From Candidatus Eiseniibacteriota bacterium (GTDB lineage Bacteria > Joyebacterota > Joyebacteria > Joyebacterales > Joyebacteraceae): a stretch of 33,172 nucleotides of DNA. The notes under the pieces are model-generated. The model was not told the DNA's origin and searched no databases. It saw nothing but the letters and a program-made list of their open reading frames with translations. The stretch covers positions 1 through 33,172 of the forward strand of contig JBDRFG010000029.1 of assembly GCA_043819135.1 (NCBI GenBank). The letters are read 5' to 3'. Below, one piece after another: positions 3-9,702 of the stretch. Position 1 is the first letter of the stretch, and every line of letters starts with the position of its first letter. A program made the translations under genes and the position numbers.

Positions 3-2171
3 CAGCAGGTCTCGCTGCAGCTGTTCGACTCGTCGGGCGATCCGGAGCCGTCGGCCGTCGTTCCGATGAACGCGCAGAACGGAGTCTGGACAGCCATCGG
101 CCGGCCCGACTGGAAGGGGAAGTTCTACCTCTACGACGTCACGGTCTTCGTGCCCCGCACGGGCGCCGTCGAGCACAACGTGGCGACCGACCCGTACTCG
201 CGCAGCCTCTCCACGGACAGCCGCAGGAGCCAGATCGTGGACCTGTCGGATCCAGCGCTCATGCCGGAGGGCTGGAACGAGTTCGAGAAGCCGGGCCTCG
301 AGGCGCCGACGGACATCGTGATCTACGAGCTTCACGTCCGCGACTTCAGCGCGAGCGACCCGACTTGCCCGGACGAGTTCGTCGGAACCTACAGGGCGTT
401 CACGGTCGAGTCGAACGGGACGCGTCATCTCTCGGCGCTCGCGGAGGCCGGGCTTACTCACCTGCACCTGCTGCCCGCCTTCGACATAGCCTCGGTGAAC
501 GAGGACAAGTCGACGTGGCTGTATCCCGGCGACCTCACGCAGTTCCCCGCCGATTCCGACAAGCAGCAGGAGGCCGTCTCGGACATCAACGGTCAGGACC
601 CCTACAACTGGGGCTACGACCCCTACCACTACGGCGTGCCAGAGGGCAGCTACTCGACCGACCCCGACGGGGCCCAGCGCATCCTCGAGTTCCGCGAGAT
701 GGTCAAGGCGCTGTCTGACATGGGCCTCAGGGTCGTCATGGACGTCGTCTACAACCACACGCACGCGAGCGGCGTCAGCGACAAGTCCGTGCTGGACAAG
801 GTCGTGCCGGGCTACTACCACCGCCTGAACAAGGACGGGCTCGTCGAGACCAGCACGTGCTGCCAGAACACGGCGACCGAGCACGATATGATGGAGCGTC
901 TCATGGTCGACGACCTGGTCCACTGGGCGACCGATCTGAAGGTGGACGCGTTCCGGTTCGACCTGATGGGCCACCACATGGTCTCGAACATGGAGAGGGC
1001 GCGCGACGCCCTGCACGCGCTCCGGCCTGAGACGGACGGGGTCGACGGCGAGGCCATCTATCTCTACGGAGAGGGATGGGACTTCGGAGAGGTCCAGGGC
1101 GGCAAGCGCGGCAGGAACGCGACGCAGTCCAACATGGCGGGTACCGGCATCGGCTCGTTCAACGACCGCATCCGCGATGCCATCCGTGGTGGCAGCGCGT
1201 TCAGCGACCGACGCGAGCAGGGGTTCGCGACGGGCATGTTCCTCGACCCGAACGGTTTCAACCAGGGGACGGGCCCCGACAGGGGCACGCTCCTCAATCA
1301 GTCGGACAGGATCAGGATAGGCCTGGCGGGCAACCTCTCCGCCTACCGGTTCATCGACCACACGGGGCGCGAGATGCGCGGCGGGATGTTCGAGAGCGTT
1401 GGCTACGCCGCACAGCCGTGCGAGGCCATCAACTACTGCTCCGCGCACGACAACGAGACGTTCTTCGATAAGATACAGTATTCGGCCGCACCGTCGGCGA
1501 CGCTGGCCGACCGCGTGCGCATGCAGAAGATGGGTCTCTCGATCGTGGCTCTCGGCCAGGGCATTCCCTTCTTCCACGCGGGCAGCGACATGCTCCGCTC
1601 GAAGTCAATGGAAGCGGACAGCTACAACGCCGGCGACTGGTTCAACAGACTGGACTGGAGCTACGAGTCGAACAATTTCGGCGTCGGGCTCCCGTCGGCG
1701 GAGAAGAACCACGACCGATGGAGCATCATCCGTCCGCTTCTCGCGCGAGAGGACATCAGGCCCGGCCGCGATGAGATCCTCGCGACCGTGCATCACTTCC
1801 GCGAGATGCTTAGCATAAGAAAGAGCTCGCCGCTCTTCCGCCTGTGCACGGCCGAGGACGTGATGGCTCGAGTGAGGTTCCTGAACACCGGCGCGAAGCA
1901 GGTGCCGGGGCTCATCGTCATGGAGATCAAGGACGAGATGGACGGCCTGAAGCCGCTCGACCCGGCGAACCGGCGCATCGTCGTCCTCTTCAACGCGGCG
2001 AAAGAGGCGGTCACCTTCGATCACGTCGACTTCAAGGGAGTGGAGTTCATGCTCCACCCCGTGCAGACCGTGTCCAAGGACGAATGGGTCAAGCAGTCGA
2101 GCTACGACGCGCAGAAGGCGAAGTTCTCCGTCCCTGCGAGAACGACCGCCGTCTTCGTGGAGCGCGGGTGA
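3..2171 (+). CDS. pulA: Pullulanase-type alpha-1,6-glucosidase (GH13), 5'-truncated by the window edge
   Basis: The frame is open from position 3. Pullulanase motifs: [24 protein letters not shown] (nucleophile), YGEGW (acid/base), NYCSAHDN. Confidence 0.93.
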
Positions 2172-2247
2172 CCGGGTCCGGGCTGGAGAGGTGCGTAGCG
2201 TCCGCGCGGCGGGAGGAGAGACCGGCACCGGAGGAGCCGAGCCGGAC

Positions 2248-2337
2248 ATAGAGCGGGCGACTGGAGGATAGGTTCGCAACCGATCCAGCCGCCCGGGCAG
2301 GAGCGAGAACGCGCTAGACGCCCTCTGCTCCCTCTAC
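2248..2337 (-). ncRNA. Candidate ~90 nt small RNA (three-way junction), no family recognised
   Basis: Starts after a 6 nt spacer from a TTGACA-N17-TAGATT promoter. Folds as P1 GUAGAG/CUCUAU, P2 GGAGC-A-GAGGGCG/CGUUCUC-GCUCC, P3 CGGGCGGCUGGA/UCCAGUCGCCCG. All 4 non-Watson-Crick pairs are G-U on the minus strand and would be A-C on plus. Confidence 0.6.
2255..2333. repeat. Direct repeat copy 1 (79 nt)
   Basis: Hand alignment to 2848-2925 gives 67/79 identical (11 substitutions, 1 gap). Confidence 0.92.
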
Positions 2338-2343
2338 TTGCAC

Positions 2344-2372
2344 AATCTACGGAGCGCGCCGTATTTTGTCAA
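2344..2372 (-). promoter_or_regulatory. Sigma70 promoter for the candidate sRNA
   Basis: Minus strand TTGACA (2372-2367), 17 nt spacer, TAGATT (2349-2344). Confidence 0.75.
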
Positions 2373-2623
2373 GAGAAACCCGACGCGAGGGCCTGTTGCG
2401 CCGGGAGCCCAGCCCGTGGAGCCGAGTGCACGGCCGGAGCCGCGCCGACACCGGACCTCTGCAACGTAGATGCGAATGAGGAGAGTCGGTTCAGCGCGCC
2501 GCGGACCGTGTGCGGTGAATGACGAGTCAATCGTTGTTTCCTGCGTTGCACGTGGGGTCTCCCGGGGACTCGATGTCATTGGTTCCATGGCGCGATCTCG
2601 GTGTCCGAACGGCACCTTTGCTA

Positions 2624-2652
2624 TTGACCAGTTGACGAAGTTTTGGTACCCT
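2624..2652 (+). promoter_or_regulatory. Putative distal sigma70 promoter
   Basis: TTGACC (2624-2629), 17 nt spacer, TACCCT (2647-2652), in an AT-enriched stretch. Confidence 0.45.
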
Positions 2653-2762
2653 CCTATCCAGTGTTGCTTGAATGCGGATATGTCGTGGACGACTCGCGGT
2701 AGCAACTGGAATAGATAGCAGGCGTCGCTCTGCTAGGCTTCAACCTTAGTGTGCAATACTTG

Positions 2763-2791
2763 TTGACCGTGGCATGCATGTTTGATAGACT
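2763..2791 (+). promoter_or_regulatory. Sigma70 promoter for the com-like/pilus transcript
   Basis: TTGACC (2763-2768), 17 nt spacer, extended -10 TGa-TAGACT (2786-2791). Confidence 0.65.
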
Positions 2792-2847
2792 GCCCACGCT
2801 GTGTTGAACGTGGGTCACACGTAGTGAAGTACGAGGCAGTAGAACAA

Positions 2848-2925
2848 GGGCGATCGGGGATAGGCTCGCAACCGATCCAGTCGCCCGGGCAGGAGTGAGG
2901 ACGCGCTCAGCGTCTTCTGCTCCCT
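2848..2925. repeat. Direct repeat copy 2 (78 nt), in the predicted 5' leader of the com-like gene
   Basis: About 85% identical to 2255-2333 and keeps both hairpins. The GGAGU-GAGGACGC/GCGUCUUC-U-GCUCC helix has two G-U pairs on the plus strand. Confidence 0.92.
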
Positions 2926-2964
2926 TATTGCGTGGACCGGGGCAGTGGAGAGAGGAGGTAGATC

Positions 2965-3000
2965 GTGTCCTGTCTCCTGACCCGGGTTCATGCCGGTTGA
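2965..3000 (+). other. Possible 11-aa upstream ORF (MSCLLTRVHAG)
   Basis: SD AGGAGGT (2953-2959), 5 nt spacer, GTG start, TGA at 2998-3000. Confidence 0.3.
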
Positions 3001-3060
3001 GCGGACTCGAGCGTCTGCAGAACTCCGCCGCCGCCAGCAACCGACCGCGAGGAACGATTG

Positions 3061-3249
3061 ATGGAGCACCGCGCCGAGAGTGTTGCCGAGGTGGAAGTGT
3101 CTGATGTGCGCTGTCCGAATTGCGGATTGCTGCTTGCGAGGAGAGACGGCGGTCAGCTGGTCGTTCGTTGGAAGGAGCTTCGCGTCAGCGTCGTCGGAGG
3201 CGCCACGAGGATCAACTGCCGTCGATGCGGCACGGAGTGCGAAGCCTAG
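3061..3249 (+). CDS. Small zinc-ribbon protein resembling phage Mu Com (translational regulator family)
   Basis: 62 aa with D-V-R-CPNC-G-LLL-A ... I-N-CRRC-G, the Com-type RCxxCxxLL...IxCxRC pattern. GAGGA SD at 3049-3053. Alternative TTG start at 3058. Confidence 0.7.
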   Translation: MEHRAESVAEVEVSDVRCPNCGLLLARRDGGQLVVRWKELRVSVVGGATRINCRRCGTECEA

Positions 3250-3337: not shown

Positions 3338-4402
3338 GTGACCAGAGGTTCGAGAAGCCCGAAGCACCCACGGAGGAGTCTGGCGTGCCCGCCGCGTCCC
3401 TGCTCTCACGATGAGGCAGTGCGTGGCTCTTCTTGTCTGGGGCCAGCGCCGTTCAGACTCGGCGGGCTCCGTGCAGTCGCGGTGGTCGCTGTGGCCCTGC
3501 TTGCTTGCGCGCCGGTCCGCGCGCATGCCGACCCGAGCTTGACGATGGATCCGCCGCTCGTTCATCTGGGCTCCTTCTCGACACTGGAGCCGCTTGAATC
3601 CGACCTCGTGTCGGGGACAACCGACATCGTGATCATATCGACCGAACCCTGGTGGCTCGAAGTCCAGGTGGCCGGTCCCATCCATCGGATTTCCGACGGG
3701 CTCGAGCTGCCAATGGAGCGCGTGCCCGAGGCCTACCCGGGCATCCCGGATGAGATCATCAACCTGCAGCCCTACATCTACAACTGGGCCTCGGGATCGG
3801 AATCGCCCGTGATCATCAGCGGCGAGTGGCTGGAACTCTCAACGATCGTGGAGGCGTACCTTGAGCCCGGCGATCCGCCGGGAACGTACGAGGCGGTTCT
3901 GTTCGCCCGGCTTCTGGACAGCGATGGGAGTCCGGTGACCGGCTACGAGACACTGACGATGCAGTTCGACGTGGAGCCGTGGGTGGATCTGGTGATGACC
4001 ACCCTGCCGGACTATGAGATCAGCGTCCCCGATGGGACGTTCGAGGGTGAGGGCGATGTCGTGCTGGTCAGCCTGGCCAGCAACACGAGTTGGGTTCTCT
4101 CTGTCCGCGGAACCGGAGACCTGTTGGACGAGCAGGGCGGCGGCGCAATAGGAGTGAGTGCCCTGTCGGTTTGTGGTGAGGAGGTTGGCGGAGGAATCAC
4201 ACGGAGGCCCTGGAGGTCCGGGTGTGAGACGGTTCAGTTGAGTCCGACTGCTCTGGCGGCGGGCGGCGAACCGGATCCATTTACCGTGTCTCTGGTGGAG
4301 ATTCCGATATTCTTCCGCTTCGAGGGCGAACCACCGCTCCCGGCCGGAAGGTATGGTGCTTCCTTGGTGTTCGAGGCAACGGCGAATGGGTTCGCGCCAT
4401 GA
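3338..4402 (+). CDS. Secreted two-domain pilin/adhesin-like subunit
   Basis: Hydrophobic signal core ending AHA-D. Two beta-rich repeats each end in a pilin-like last strand (PPGTYEAVLF, PAGRYGASLVF). Sits next to chaperone and usher genes. Start codon uncertain. Confidence 0.6.
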   Translation: MTRGSRSPKHPRRSLACPPRPCSHDEAVRGSSCLGPAPFRLGGLRAVAVVAVALLACAPVRAHADPSLTMDPPLVHLGSFSTLEPLESDLVSGTTDIVIISTEPWWLEVQVAGPIHRISDGLELPMERVPEAYPGIPDEIINLQPYIYNWASGSESPVIISGEWLELSTIVEAYLEPGDPPGTYEAVLFARLLDSDGSPVTGYETLTMQFDVEPWVDLVMTTLPDYEISVPDGTFEGEGDVVLVSLASNTSWVLSVRGTGDLLDEQGGGAIGVSALSVCGEEVGGGITRRPWRSGCETVQLSPTALAAGGEPDPFTVSLVEIPIFFRFEGEPPLPAGRYGASLVFEATANGFAP

Positions 4403-4660
4403 TGCAGCCAGAAGAAAGGGGGGGTGTCTAGGGGCAGGTTGCTTCACGTTCGGGCGGTCCCGGACGGTGGTGGAACCACCGGCTGAGGCCACGCTGGCGA
4501 CGAGGGCTCTGGAGGAGCGCCGACACGGAATGACGATCGGAGCACCGAGCAAGGGACCCGCCGCACGCGCGACTTCTCAGCCGAGAGTGCCGAGGCGACG
4601 AGCAGGAATCTGTGGCCTCGGCGGCAGAAACCGTTTGACCTACCAAGGAGGATTGCGAAA

Positions 4661-5212
4661 ATGAAGTGGATTATCTCACTCGCGTGCCTGGCCCTCATGT
4701 TTGGAATCGCCGTGGCAGACGAGACCGACGAGGCCCTGCTGGAAGTGTTCGTCGAGGTGGACGCCAACATGACAGTTGCCCCGGGTGCCCCTTTCATCGA
4801 CCTGCAGTCAGTCCAGGTCGGCCCGATCACGGGGTACATTCCGTTCATCGTCGACGCGAACACGCAGACCTGCATGTTCTACGCTGCCGCGTCGAGGCTC
4901 TACAAGGGCGATGATCCGATCAGCCCCGAAGTTCCGCCGATCGATCTTCTCGAGGCGTCCGGGATCAACTTCAGCGTCCCCGATGGCGATCCCACGGGCG
5001 GCGCGGACAACAACGCCTGCTACATGGGCGACACCGTGATCAACGGGTTCCCTGGTAAGTTCTGCGAGTGGATCGAGTTCGAGAGCTCACAGAACAACCG
5101 CTTCAGCCAGACGATGACGCTCGAAGTGACGTGGTTCCAGGACAACCCCGAGAAGCCGATGGGCGAGTACAGCGGCTTCGTCGAGTTCTTCGCCATGATC
5201 GTTCTCCCTTAA
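4661..5212 (+). CDS. Putative major pilin subunit 1
   Basis: Strong SD AAGGAGG, Sec signal peptide (AVA-D), 183 aa, C-terminal GEYSGFVEFFA strand typical of chaperone-usher subunits. Confidence 0.7.
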   Translation: MKWIISLACLALMFGIAVADETDEALLEVFVEVDANMTVAPGAPFIDLQSVQVGPITGYIPFIVDANTQTCMFYAAASRLYKGDDPISPEVPPIDLLEASGINFSVPDGDPTGGADNNACYMGDTVINGFPGKFCEWIEFESSQNNRFSQTMTLEVTWFQDNPEKPMGEYSGFVEFFAMIVLP

Positions 5213-5352
5213 GGGGAAACCCCTGGGTTGAGCGAGGAGGGACGTGGCCGCGGAGCTGCGCCGCGGGCTTGTCATCTTGGACTGCGGCAAGGTGTGCGAG
5301 AATTGCCGCCGGGCGTTCACTCCAAAGCAGTAATCGGATGCGGAGGCAGACC

Positions 5353-5381
5353 CCCCGGTCGGGCACGGCGCCCGACCGGGG
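5353..5381 (+). other. 12-bp GC-rich hairpin downstream of pilin 1 (stabiliser or attenuator)
   Basis: CCCCGGTCGGGC-acggc-GCCCGACCGGGG with no U-tract. Confidence 0.55.
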
Positions 5382-5519
5382 CCGCCGCCGACAGATGGCG
5401 TCCGTGCAGTCCGCGCCGGGAAGAGAGCGATCGCTTCTTCCGCCGGGCGCGGGAACCGTCAACCGTTCCAGTTGACCTGACGACCGTCCCGGTGAACAGG
5501 TCCCATGAGGCCAATAGAA

Positions 5520-6380
5520 ATGAGACATCTTTCACAAGTGGCTAATAGAGTGCTCCGAATCTCCGGAAGAACTGCCGGCCTGTTGGCGCTGCTCGCGCTT
5601 CTTCTGCCATCACTGGCGGGGGCCACGCTCTCGATCGAGCCGGCGTTCGTCGAGCTGGCGCTGGACAAGGGCAGGCCGTCAGCCGTCATCACGGTCACCA
5701 ACGTGACCGATCAAGAGACCCGGTATCGCGCCCAGCCCGCGCACTTTGTCTACAAGACGGACGGAAACTTCGAGCTGCAGGAGCCTGATGGTCAGTCGCT
5801 GGCACTCTGGTTGAAGTTCAATCCTCGTGAGTTCACGCTCGCTCCCAAGGAGAGTCGTGCGATCCGGCTGAGCGTCGTTCCCCCCAAGAACCTGGATGAC
5901 GGCGAATACTGGGCGGCCCTGCGGTTCGAGCCGCTGGAGGGGATCATTTCCAGGGGCGACGATGGCGCCGGACGCTCGGTGGCGGTAGAAGTGCGGGCGA
6001 ACATACTGGTCCCGATAGTGGGGCGCGTCGGCGAGCAGACGTATGTCTGCGACTTCAAGGACCTCAAGGCCTGGAGAAGCGACGAGGGTGTCGCGATCGT
6101 CGCGAGTATTGTCAACACCGGCACCGCACGTGTTCGCGTGAACGGCAGCTACGAGATCGTGGACTCCGCCGGGAACGAGGTGGCCGGAGGGGTGTTCGGT
6201 GAGGCCACGATCCTGGCGGGCGGCGAGAGAGTGTTCTCGCAGGTGGTCGAGGGCGAGTTCCCGGATGAGAACTACGACGTCCGCATTCGCTACACGTCGG
6301 AGACACTGAAGGACGATCTTGCGGGCCTCACTCACGTTCGCAACGAGGCTCCCGCCGACCTTCCGGGCGATGAACACTAG
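5520..6380 (+). CDS. PapD/EcpB-like pilus assembly chaperone
   Basis: Signal peptide, then LSIEPAFVEL...ITVTN...WLKFNPREFTLAPKESRAIRL...GEYWAAL, then a second Ig domain with NTGT. Alternative start at 5505. Confidence 0.82.
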   Translation: MRHLSQVANRVLRISGRTAGLLALLALLLPSLAGATLSIEPAFVELALDKGRPSAVITVTNVTDQETRYRAQPAHFVYKTDGNFELQEPDGQSLALWLKFNPREFTLAPKESRAIRLSVVPPKNLDDGEYWAALRFEPLEGIISRGDDGAGRSVAVEVRANILVPIVGRVGEQTYVCDFKDLKAWRSDEGVAIVASIVNTGTARVRVNGSYEIVDSAGNEVAGGVFGEATILAGGERVFSQVVEGEFPDENYDVRIRYTSETLKDDLAGLTHVRNEAPADLPGDEH

Positions 6381-6474
6381 ATTGCGGATCTTCCATCCTG
6401 AGGCGGCGGTCAGTCTCGTCGATCGGGAGCCATCCCAGCGGCCCCCAGCTTCTGTGAGGCCCAGAGGCCTGACC

Positions 6475-9400
6475 ATGGTGACGGAAAGCACGGGCAACAC
6501 GAGCGAGCGTCGACGGAAGTCGAGAAGCGAGGCGCGGTTCTCGCAACGCGCGAGACACGCGGCCTTCGCGGCGTCCTCCCGGCCAGGGTGTTCCCGGCTC
6601 CTCGTCGGTGTCCTGACGTTCGCCATCGTCCTTTCTGCCTGCACGTTCGCCTGGGCCCAGAACTCTGATGTCACCGCCCAGGCTGCAGACTCGCTTGCCC
6701 GGCAGCCGCGACTCGCCCGGGCCGCGCAGTCGGTGATCGAGACGACACTGGCGGGCCTCACGCTGAACGGGAGGGCTCGCTGGGAGAGACTCGTCCTGTC
6801 CGACCTCGACATCGTGGTGCGGGAGGACGGCACGCGGTTGTTGCCGCTCCTGCGGATACTCCGTGCACTCCACATTGATGTGGCCGACTCTGGGGGATCC
6901 CTGACCTTTCACCCGGAAGGTGCGAGCAAGGTCGTGCTCGACTACGAATCGGGTGAGGTCGCCTTCGGCCAGACGTCGCGCGAGGTGACACTGGTCGTCG
7001 GTTTGTCCGATCTCACTTTCGAGCCCGAGGTCTACGTTCCAGACGATCTGGTTGTGGAGCTTCTGGCGATCGACTCGCAATGGGACGCACAACGCTACGA
7101 GTACACCCTCTCCGCGGAACGCGAGCTGAGTGTCTTCCGGGAGAGGGGTCGCACACCCTCTCTTCTCGCGCGCTCGCGTGGGCCGGTGAGCATCGACCTG
7201 CCGGGCAATCTCCCGCCCGCCCCCGTCGATCGATCGCTGGCTCCACGTCTCGACTTCGCAAGCGTCCGGACGCGGTCAAGCGTCATCACTCGCGAGAACG
7301 ACGACAAGCTCTCGGGGGCGTTCTCCCCCCCTCGCCTCGAGATGTGGGGCCGCGTGCTCGGAGGGAGACTGAGCGCCGCGGTGAGGCAGAACGACACGTG
7401 GCCGACCGAGGGGTACAGCGTCGACCGAACATCGTGGCACAGCTGCTTCAGCAACGTGGAGGTAGAGGTTGGAGCCAACAGCCTCGGGCTCTCGCAGTTT
7501 GCGTTTCCGTCGATGAACCTGCTCGGTGCGAGGATCAACGGGAGCTTCGGAGGGTCGGGCGACGATCGTGGTCGAGACCTATCACAGATGGGGAGGCGTC
7601 AGAGGTACCAGCCCACGCAGATCGTTGAGGGGTATGCACCTCTGGGTTCGGAAGTCACGCTCGAGATCAATGGACAGACGGTCGACGTTCAGATCGTTGA
7701 GGACGAAGACGGAGCTCCTCCCGGGGAGGGGATCTATCGCTTCGACGGCTTCAATCTGTTCACGAGTCGGCTCAACAGCGTTCGCGTGATAGTGGTCGCC
7801 CCCGATGGGACGGTCGATGAAACTGAACGCCAGGTGCTTGGGTCGGATCAGCTGGCCGACGAGGGTGACATGACATTCATGGGCGCCGTCGGCGGGAGAC
7901 GACTCCCGTCTACCGACGGTCTGTCCTCACAGGGCTTTTTCGCCGGGGGGCGGCTCAGCTACGGGCTCAGCAGCAACCTGACGCTCGGCGCAACGGCGGC
8001 GATCCAGGATGGGCTCTACGAGGAGGACACGGCGATAGCCTACGTTGGGGCGGAGAGCGATACGCTGCCCTCGAAGAGCCTCCACGCGGGGTCGCGCTGT
8101 GTCTGGCGCCCCTTCGGTCCCCTCCTGGTTCAGGTGGAGGGTGCCGGAAGCCGCGTCCCCGATACCTCGGAGAGCGACTGGGCGGGCAAAGCCGGCGCAG
8201 AACTGCACGTCGGCGGCGCGCGCCTGTACCCCGCGCTCTTTCGGTATGGTCCGTCGTTCTTCGACGGCCGGAACGCCGAACTCCGGGATGTGTTGGGCGG
8301 GAGTGCGAGTCTTGTCTGGCGCTCCGTCGGTGGGAACGAGGTGGCTGTCGGTGCCTGCCGCTCGCGGGACAACCTGGACCGGCACCAGGAGGAAACGACC
8401 CAGCTCACCGATTTCGCTTTCAACGTCGACGCACGCACGCTCATTCCCCGATCGACTCTATCCCTGGGCACCAACGTGCTCTGGATAGGAGAGGATTCAC
8501 CGCTGCGATTTGACGTACTCGGCCTGAACACGGGTCTGCCATCCGGTTGGTCTCTCCGCAGCCGTTTCGTTCTCGGAGACGACCTCCGGGCCGCGTTGCG
8601 AGATGAACTCCCTGACGGTTCGTCGTCTCGGTTCGACAGGATTCGCAGGCAGGCCGCGGCGTACGATGCGCGTTCCGCGCTGGGATCGAGCGTCCTCGGC
8701 ACGAGAGTCGAACTCAGGCGCAGGCTGAGTTCGAGTTGGCAGCTGGCCCTCTCTCACAGGACCTCGCCGAGTCTCACGCGCACCTCGGCTGATCTCACTC
8801 GGAACCGCGCGGCCGACGGCCGCTGGCAATGGCGGCTCACGCCGGGGTACGACTGGGACCGGCAAACCCCGTACCTGCAGAACCGCCTCGAGTACCTCGT
8901 CGACTCCGGCCACCGCAATCGCATCGTTCTCGAGACCCAGTTTGTCGAGAACGACTGGTTCGCCCGTCTGTCCATCCAGATGCAGTTCGATGTCGGGTTT
9001 GTCGGCAATCGCCCGGTGTCTCTTGGAGACAGCTACATGAATCCCGACGTTGGAGGAGTCAAGGGCAGGGTATTTGTGGATTTCAACGGCAACGGGCTTC
9101 CCGACGACGGCGAGCCGGGACTGGAGGAAGTTGACGTCACGTCGGACATGGGGCTCCAGGTCTCGTCAAAGAAAGGGGGCCTGTTCGTTATTCCGAACAG
9201 CTCTCACCGGCGTGGGGCGACCGTCGGCCTCGTGCCCGAAACTCTGCCGGCAATCTACACACCGACGCAGGCGACTCAGGAGGCCATCCTGCGGCCGGGG
9301 ATGCTCACCGAGATCAACCTCGGTGTGGGCGCCTTCGGTTCGATCACGGGGTGGGTGCGAGCCCGGAGCGACGGGGAGGAGCCGCAGGGCGTCGGCGGCG

Positions 9401-9702
9401 TGGGGGTCGTGCTGGTCGGCGCTGACGGACGGGTCGTCGGCGCGTCGATCACCGCCAGCGACGGGAGCTACTACCTGGGTGAAGTCAGACCGGGCTCGTA
9501 TGTCGTCACCGTCGCGGACGGGGGGCTTCCCGAGGGTCTCGAGCTTGATCAGACAGAGATTCCCATTGATGTCTTTCCGAACGCCGAGTTCTACGAGATC
9601 GAAGACGTGAATCTGACCGGCGTGTACGCGGCTCCGCCTGAGGAAGAAGCCGGGGAGCATCAGGAAGAGGGAGAGGGAGTCGAGTACAGGGTCTTCGACT
9701 AG
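6475..9702 (+). CDS. Large usher-like outer membrane protein with C-terminal SdrD-B/carboxypeptidase-regulatory-like domains
   Basis: Signal core ending AWA-Q, alternating beta-strand barrel segments, plug-like EGYAPLGSEVTLEING, SYGLSSNLTLG, then GRVFVDFNGNG..D.GE and DGSYYLGEVRPGSY. Directly follows the chaperone. Confidence 0.72.
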   Translation: MVTESTGNTSERRRKSRSEARFSQRARHAAFAASSRPGCSRLLVGVLTFAIVLSACTFAWAQNSDVTAQAADSLARQPRLARAAQSVIETTLAGLTLNGRARWERLVLSDLDIVVREDGTRLLPLLRILRALHIDVADSGGSLTFHPEGASKVVLDYESGEVAFGQTSREVTLVVGLSDLTFEPEVYVPDDLVVELLAIDSQWDAQRYEYTLSAERELSVFRERGRTPSLLARSRGPVSIDLPGNLPPAPVDRSLAPRLDFASVRTRSSVITRENDDKLSGAFSPPRLEMWGRVLGGRLSAAVRQNDTWPTEGYSVDRTSWHSCFSNVEVEVGANSLGLSQFAFPSMNLLGARINGSFGGSGDDRGRDLSQMGRRQRYQPTQIVEGYAPLGSEVTLEINGQTVDVQIVEDEDGAPPGEGIYRFDGFNLFTSRLNSVRVIVVAPDGTVDETERQVLGSDQLADEGDMTFMGAVGGRRLPSTDGLSSQGFFAGGRLSYGLSSNLTLGATAAIQDGLYEEDTAIAYVGAESDTLPSKSLHAGSRCVWRPFGPLLVQVEGAGSRVPDTSESDWAGKAGAELHVGGARLYPALFRYGPSFFDGRNAELRDVLGGSASLVWRSVGGNEVAVGACRSRDNLDRHQEETTQLTDFAFNVDARTLIPRSTLSLGTNVLWIGEDSPLRFDVLGLNTGLPSGWSLRSRFVLGDDLRAALRDELPDGSSSRFDRIRRQAAAYDARSALGSSVLGTRVELRRRLSSSWQLALSHRTSPSLTRTSADLTRNRAADGRWQWRLTPGYDWDRQTPYLQNRLEYLVDSGHRNRIVLETQFVENDWFARLSIQMQFDVGFVGNRPVSLGDSYMNPDVGGVKGRVFVDFNGNGLPDDGEPGLEEVDVTSDMGLQVSSKKGGLFVIPNSSHRRGATVGLVPETLPAIYTPTQATQEAILRPGMLTEINLGVGAFGSITGWVRARSDGEEPQGVGGVGVVLVGADGRVVGASITASDGSYYLGEVRPGSYVVTVADGGLPEGLELDQTEIPIDVFPNAEFYEIEDVNLTGVYAAPPEEEAGEHQEEGEGVEYRVFD

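Follow-up and report, generated by a model that had tools for sequence, protein, structure and literature searches.

What does a promoter do when no gene stands behind it? The question arises in a window of 33,172 nucleotides, the whole stretch of DNA that we analysed (positions 1 to 33,172 of contig JBDRFG010000029.1, assembly GCA_043819135.1, from a Candidatus Eiseniibacteriota bacterium), where a minus-strand promoter is found shortly past a pullulanase gene. A promoter-pattern scan of positions 1500-3200 returned two promoter-like sites, against 0.2 +/- 0.4 in shuffled sequences, and one of them is this promoter (named P_as), a TTGACA box followed after 17 nt by TAGATT. A 224-aa minus-strand ORF (1605-2279) overlies the pullulanase gene, and no credible ORF follows P_as on its own strand, just as an original prediction, which proposed a small structured RNA gene at this place, had stated. 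The predicted start also agrees with that prediction: the closing helix P1, as predicted, opens with G2337, which lies 7 nt past the -10 box. Within the spacer of P_as, the plus strand (2348-2368) can form a small hairpin with a run of T behind it, a candidate terminator for read-through from the pullulanase gene; similar spacer hairpins are visible in some loci of genus g3. ARAGORN detected no tRNA or tmRNA gene in the window.

The minus strand of 2248-2337 folds with a predicted energy of -48.3 kcal/mol (z = -3.57; none of 200 shuffles equalled it) and the plus strand with -39.8 kcal/mol (z = -2.54); with flanks added (2230-2345), the z score weakens to -1.82. The predicted pairs largely reproduce the helices first described, with P1 of 6 bp (2337-2332 with 2248-2253), a UGCC linker (2299-2296) and P3 of 12 bp (2295-2284 with 2254-2265) enclosing a GGUU/AACC hairpin. 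Only P2 differs, and in a minor way: instead of 12 bp with one bulge it has 13 pairs with one bulge and one 1x1 mismatch. The fold holds exactly four non-canonical pairs, all of them G-U or U-G in this orientation, as claimed. The features of this locus (copy 1) and of a second copy described below are collected in Table 1.

Table 1. Coordinates of the element copies, promoters and neighbouring genes in the window, and the loci with an inverted repeat at the sense promoter.
Feature	Position	Strand	Remarks
P_as -35 box, TTGACA	2367..2372	minus	promoter-pattern scan and conservation in homologs
P_as -10 box, TAGATT	2344..2349	minus	promoter-pattern scan and conservation in homologs
Copy 1, element including RNA promoter	2246-2372	minus	only the RNA promoter is present
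Copy 1, predicted antisense RNA of ~92 nt	2246..2337	minus	putative +1 ~G2337, putative 3' end ~2246-2250
5' hairpin P2	2300..2331	minus	shape conserved, sequence variable
3' hairpin P3, predicted intrinsic terminator	2254..2295	minus	near-invariant GGGCGRCUGG/CCAGYCGCCC stem, variable inner hairpin
Pyrimidine tail	2244..2253	minus	the family's weakest tail (4 T in 12 nt); P1 pairing with the 5' end only in copy 1
P_sense, TTGACC-17-TAGACT	2763..2791	plus	same promoter before the same operon in G013 and G016
Copy 2, element within the operon 5' leader	2832..2931	plus	without minus promoter; predicted target of the copy 1 RNA
Zinc-ribbon gene (63 aa, CxxC...CxxC), first of the operon	3058..3249	plus	weak Zn_ribbon_3 match under the cut-off; kept in G013 and G016
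Four genes (3338-4402, 4661-5212, 5505-6380, 6319-9702), probable SCPU/chaperone-usher-type pilus operon	3338..9702	plus	putative regulated output
Inverted-repeat loci	L038-L041, L047, L053, L067, L069, L070		sense promoter region

Searching with a covariance model, we found 32 copies of the element in 19 of the 31 genomes of the phylum, one to four per genome, copy 1 of the window scoring 73.9 bits; a rebuilt model (R3) recovered the same 32. The phylum as sampled here consists of one family with 8 genera, 7 of which carry the element, and the loci are related by descent, so that counts across the family are not independent. Homologs detected by BLASTN were confined to the genome's own family, and R3 gave nothing credible in 119 genomes of other families (stricter filters, 27 candidates scored per genome). 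Four matches outside the phylum (23-25 bits, E 0.01-0.045) were rejected, as they score at the level of reverse-strand self-matches and do not carry the P_as pattern; nor does a weak match in genome G006 that is similar to them. A metagenome search by exact pattern yielded 16 loci, 10 of them new distinct sequences, while viral contigs gave no match to the promoter-plus-hairpin pattern. Against Rfam 15 there was no match at E<=10 in positions 1800-2900 and none at the gathering threshold in the whole window. Both strands of 20 homologous loci returned four sub-threshold Rfam matches, none on the element, and no riboswitch match at E<=5. The Rfam comparison, which had been suggested for this locus, thus agrees with the view that the RNA lies outside the known families, and no description of it was found in the literature searched, chiefly in the form of listings.

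The promoter is conserved along with the hairpins. By a strict pattern with a background of 0.36%, P_as is present in 29 of the 32 loci; two of the misses have one-base variants of the -35 box and the third is the second copy of the window, which has none. In the 26 homologs with a 17-nt spacer the -35 box always contains TTGAC, the spacer itself being poorly conserved, and positions 2 and 6 of the -10 box, both of which belonged to the search pattern, are always A and T, respectively. That this is a non-coding RNA gene in its own right, driven by a sigma-70-type promoter, is therefore supported, promoter conservation in homologs included, and the element appears to be a real, so far undescribed RNA family of one bacterial lineage.

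The fold of that family is another one than the three-way junction originally put forward. All copies but copy 1 consist of two hairpins plus a U-rich tail: P1 forms in only one of the 32 genome copies (copy 1 itself) and in none of the 16 metagenome copies, and a 6-bp helix between 5' end and tail is possible in 17% of mismatched 5'/tail pairings. With a closing helix so rare and so easily found by chance, we rejected the three-way junction as the family fold. P2 is a single hairpin in all 42 distinct homologous segments (median z -3.4; z < -2 in 37 of them), in spite of a median pairwise identity of 56% and of lengths, 42-58 nt, that differ by non-triplet steps. Covariation, the other check proposed at the outset, gave a divided answer. 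In a model-fitted alignment of 41 sequences, which is fitted to the structure and hence leans towards it, 16 of 16 P2 pairs change on both sides and none of 500 shuffles reaches the score; in an unfitted alignment of 11 close class-b sequences the signal is not significant, 135 of 500 shuffles reaching it. Unfitted MAFFT alignments are mis-registered in P2, and RNAalifold finds only P3 in them.

P3 is of a different nature, with a near-invariant outer stem of 10 bp in which 7 of the 10 pairs never vary. Its single variable pair reads, on the minus strand of the 32 loci, G-U 14 times, A-U 13 times, G-C 5 times and A-C never, and the lone mismatch of the stem occurs in copy 2, the copy without P_as. 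The 12 nt that follow P3 contain on average 6.5 T on the RNA strand against 0.5 on the other, suggesting that P3 plus the U tail would serve as the RNA's own terminator. The argument that G-U pairs reveal the transcribed strand holds for P3 across the family but fails for P2, whose better-folding strand is the one in 16 loci and the other in 16. That P2 folds on both strands would be expected if both are transcribed.

The original prediction had overlooked two features: the second copy of the element in the window, and a conserved promoter opposing P_as. The latter (P_sense, on the opposite strand and facing P_as) was found in 31 of the 32 loci, against a background of 0.92%, and is absent only from copy 1; both promoters, or a near match, are present in 29 of the 32. 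The distance from the end of the RNA to P_sense beyond it is 76-123 nt in 30 loci; in copy 2 it is 44 nt. The metagenome loci provide an independent check, since the pattern used to find them left P_sense out: it is present in 14 of the 16, the other two ending 96 and 7 nt after the element, and in 8 of the 8 new distinct sequences that could be assessed. Facing promoters with overlapping predicted transcripts place the RNA antisense within a long 5' leader. Among the leaders listed, the sense start codon is 290-430 nt from the predicted transcript start, with the element crossed on the way.

The genes behind these leaders are of a recurrent type, with N-termini that, judged by eye, look like signal peptides. 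All seven full-length class-a proteins tested measure 1,558-1,976 aa and end in a FlgD_ig tail, five of them with a Beta_helix match, and in class-b loci the element heads operons containing a secretin. Downstream of the RNA, the extended loci have no gene on the RNA's strand. Short uORFs led by a Shine-Dalgarno sequence occur in 21 of the 32 loci and are unrelated to one another and not conserved. Loci L071-L080 contain tandem arrays of secreted Beta_helix/FlgD_ig proteins of 1,500-2,000 aa, and a secretin-containing, pilus-like operon of unnamed proteins, usually beside a dihydropyrimidine-dehydrogenase-like gene.

The second copy of the window was detected by BLASTN at 2848-2925, with 85% identity to copy 1 over 79 nt. 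Similarity between the two spans 2238-2341 and 2832-2931, which is the predicted transcript plus 4-8 nt, and the flanks align at random level (scores 16 and 32; random median 26, 95th percentile 38). They are each other's closest relatives in the family, and they are complementary in what they have lost: copy 1 has P_as only, with neither a sense promoter nor a sense gene of its own, and copy 2 has P_sense only. The best reading is that a cassette of the window was duplicated, each half keeping one promoter. In genomes G013 and G016 the same operon, behind the same promoter, has no element in its leader, and copy 2 could for that reason be a neutral insertion. Upstream of the operon promoter there is a further promoter-like site, TTGACC-17-TACCCT (2624-2652, plus strand), in an AT-richer stretch.

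We next asked what the RNA of copy 1 could pair with. Its predicted duplex with 2835-2932 amounts to -166 kcal/mol, and a whole-genome search gave no long complement other than copy 2. Both hairpin loops are mismatched in the proposed duplex, and 7 of the 10 transitions between the copies keep G-U pairing in it, which is not significant. Copy 1 folds better on the minus strand (-6.2 kcal/mol) and copy 2 on the plus strand (+9.3), biases that fall inside the family range of -10.6 to +11.1. Weak indications suggest that the operon behind copy 2 probably encodes a chaperone-usher-type pilus: an SdrD_B match, an fn3_5 match under the cut-off and, for the gene at 4661-5209, a nearest named Atlas cluster with SCPU in 14% of its members. 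The genome of the window (G000, the window being its contig C29) is 92% complete, so that further copies of the element may have escaped assembly. Four queries for the class-a and class-b genes of the relatives found nothing in it save for a shared FlgD tail. G000 has two near-identical dihydropyrimidine-dehydrogenase loci (contigs C49 and C22), one of them cut at a contig end, and the element-bearing dihydropyrimidine-dehydrogenase locus of the relatives may be among its unassembled parts.

Together these results lead us to the following reading, which we hold with moderate confidence: a two-hairpin antisense RNA lowers the expression of cell-surface operons and, in this window, would do so in trans. 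The sense promoter would produce the 290-430-nt leader of either a secretin/pilus operon or a gene whose product is a giant secreted protein, with the element some 80-125 nt into it. The facing promoter just beyond the element would give an RNA of 92-105 nt that stops at the terminator formed by P3 and the U tail, short of the sense promoter. Being fully complementary to the leader, this RNA probably starts pairing at the hairpin loops and proceeds to a long duplex, which most likely cuts full-length mRNA through RNase III cleavage, premature Rho-assisted termination or both; at cis loci, polymerase collisions would add to the repression. In the window, copy 1 would make the RNA and copy 2, in the leader of the pilus-like operon, would supply the target. 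As copy 1 would be transcribed away from the operon, collision is impossible, which leaves pairing of the two RNAs in trans as the only route for control here. The sequence itself shows the two promoters, the hairpins, the tail, the gene context and the complementarity; that the RNAs are made, that they pair inside the cell, that the effect is negative and that a nuclease or termination carries it out is our inference.

The choice of the last step is guided by folding. When the target was blocked in equilibrium folding, accessibility of the ribosome site remained almost unchanged among the leaders listed. As for a conserved attenuator, only 2 of 25 leaders gained more than 0.2 in formation of sense P2 when P3 was blocked, and a terminator-like site is found in only 7 of 25. 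With no conserved folding switch, and with RNase III and Rho both encoded, duplex cleavage or Rho-assisted termination is favoured. The invariant sequence of the P3 stem, needless for a plain terminator, hints at recognition by a protein.

The main rival, which we consider unlikely, turns to the other strand. It holds that the two adjacent hairpins of the sense leader do the work and that a protein, RNA polymerase or a ligand binds them, as in an antiterminator or riboswitch, while the facing promoter acts only by transcriptional interference and the short RNA is a by-product. In 15 of 32 loci sense P2 is capped by a GNRA tetraloop, against 2 of 32 for the antisense strand, which suits such a function, as do the invariant P3 stem, the very long genes in tandem arrays and the survival of copy 2 with its sense promoter alone. 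The P3 wobbles, however, all G-U on the antisense strand, become A-C mismatches in 14 of 32 sense hairpins, and the lack of a riboswitch match on either strand of the 20 loci points the same way. For antitermination by a NusG paralog of the LoaP/RfaH/UpxY kind no candidate was found: 26 of the 31 genomes have one NusG match (PF02357), the other five have none, and a second NusG-family protein appears in 0 of 31. Copy 1, moreover, retains promoter, hairpins and complementarity at a place where interference would have no sense promoter to act on.

A free-standing small RNA that acts as decoy or scaffold, through a protein partner or on other targets, with the leader overlap merely coupling expression, is in our view improbable. 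It would account for the invariant P3 stem beside variable loops, and for copy 1 standing alone with its ends closed; by eye, the internal loop of P3 also has an anti-Shine-Dalgarno-like CCUCC in some copies, copy 1 included. Yet this motif varies (UCACC, UCUCC and CCCCC in other copies), 31 of the 32 copies lie within an opposing transcription unit, the genome offers no other long complement, and only 19 of the 31 genomes have the element at all.

The notion that the element works as DNA, being an inverted-repeat operator, a recombination site or a small mobile cassette of which the half-copies of the window are decaying duplication remnants, strikes us as quite improbable. The G-U versus A-C asymmetry and the one-sided U tail are features of RNA, P2 keeps its shape at 56% identity, the likeness of copies 1 and 2 ends at the transcript ends, and there are only one to four copies per genome, with no transposase-like ORF seen by eye in 12 extended loci. 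These weigh against the invariant 10-bp inverted arms with their 17-21-nt spacer, the position of the element before unrelated operons and its lack in the orthologous leader of G013 and G016, and the weak U tail of copy 1 and broken stem of copy 2, all of which a DNA site would explain. Finally, that the element is merely the terminator of the pullulanase gene, whose stop (2171) it follows by 75-165 nt, with a promoter there by chance, is hardly credible: conservation of P_as in 29 of 32 homologs contradicts it, promoter and hairpins are kept where the upstream genes differ, the plus strand has no U tract after P3, and the plus-strand hairpin and T run of 2348-2368, a structure apart from P3, would make the likelier terminator.

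Antisense repression of surface operons has precedents in arrangement. At icsA of Shigella flexneri, convergent promoters 120 bp apart give transcriptional interference and premature termination induced by the antisense RNA RnaG, the latter also in trans (PMC2879508). Our loci share with it convergent promoters and a predicted antisense RNA that overlaps the leader of a large surface-protein gene. RnaG is 450 nt long, single-copy and plasmid-borne and induces a defined terminator (PMC2879508), whereas the RNA here has 92-105 nt, ends in the leader before the sense promoter and is present in one to four chromosomal copies; we found no conserved induced terminator, and the likeness to RnaG is one of arrangement. 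In prgX-prgQ of pCF10, Anti-Q and Qs overlap by 223 nt, and attenuation and RNase III cleavage act across the overlap, with switch-like behaviour (PMC3181467). Like Anti-Q, the small RNA predicted here would arise at a facing promoter and match, as its complement, the long non-coding leader of a surface or conjugation operon. The antisense promoter of pCF10 also transcribes prgX, a repressor gene, and a peptide is encoded in the leader (PMC3181467); unlike Anti-Q, the RNA here has no gene after it on its own strand, the uORFs are short and unconserved, and Rfam gives no match. The RNA is thus kin in arrangement to RnaG and Anti-Q, and a member of neither. As regards the features common to antisense RNAs over leaders in cis, facing promoters are present (29/32 and 31/32 loci, and 14 of 14 testable metagenome loci), in the window on separate copies; a discrete non-coding RNA with its own terminator is predicted; and equilibrium folding revealed neither a conserved terminator induced by binding nor, among the leaders listed, hiding of the ribosome site. 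The arrangement is of a known kind, antisense over a leader, and the sequence family is apparently new.

The antisense RNAs of type I toxin-antitoxin systems (Sok/hok, RdlD/ldr, IsoA/aapA) also lie over a 5' leader. The RNA resembles them in size, in having two hairpins and a terminator, in its strong promoter and its multiple copies, and the short uORF led by a Shine-Dalgarno sequence downstream, here in 21 of 32 loci, is a further likeness. The genes downstream are, in contrast, giant secreted proteins or pilus operons, and we discarded this identity after finding a small hydrophobic toxin ORF (SD-led, 15-70 aa, GRAVY > 0.8, within 330 nt) in 0 of 32 loci. Antisense RNAs also control plasmid copy number, as do CopA, RNAI of pT181 and RNAIII of pIP501. 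They share with ours two stem-loops, the variable loops of which could give each locus its specificity; unlike them, the element is chromosomal, beside housekeeping genes, with no rep gene seen and no Rfam match.

The antisense-to-leader layout and the split copy are the interesting part of the finding. In its usual setting the RNA lies on the strand opposite the 5' ends of giant surface-protein and pilus genes, whose expression it probably lowers, which adds a structured RNA family and a probable cell-surface regulon to a phylum known here only from genome bins. Antisense control over leaders is mostly known from single plasmid or toxin loci, and a multicopy chromosomal cassette before different surface operons is unusual. 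The split copies of the window set pairing of the RNAs apart from collision of the polymerases, two effects that are difficult to distinguish at ordinary convergent promoters, and they make the window a case for the origin of a trans-acting small RNA and its target from one cis locus.

All copies share the invariant P3 stem, and the RNA of each locus could therefore bind the leaders of others as well. Predicted duplexes, with intramolecular structure ignored, are mostly -95 to -137 kcal/mol for heterologous pairs and -216 to -250 kcal/mol for cognate ones. One may speculate, as an extension of the antisense reading that we regard as rather doubtful, that the surface-coat operons of this lineage compete through a portable antisense cassette, so that giant adhesins and pili could be expressed in a switch-like or mutually exclusive manner, and that the window captures a cis-antisense RNA becoming a trans-acting one. 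The cassette would then have been grafted onto an operon that is element-free in the relatives, with duplication and reciprocal promoter loss following.

Other details of these loci deserve mention. In nine of the 32 loci (Table 1) an inverted repeat, TGTCAA-N8-14-TTGAC, lies over the -35 box of the sense promoter and is a possible operator. In genus g5 (L042, L043, L045 and L059) a strong Shine-Dalgarno sequence precedes a start-stop or three-codon uORF (M*, MTS*, MAS*, MTV*) 76-77 nt after the element. Loci L085, L090 and L095 have short-P2 variants like the copies of the window, with the sense promoter very near the element, which precedes a gene for a secreted protein with a CGDSIT motif, possibly an SGNH-hydrolase. 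Lastly, a repeated motif with the core GAGGTTCGAGAAGCC is present once in the window (3344-3361), whereas G013 and G016 have several occurrences near the zinc-ribbon gene (L083, 1209 and 1288; L068, ~3150 and 3520-3620). It may be a binding site of the small zinc-ribbon protein, which may resemble Com of phage Mu.
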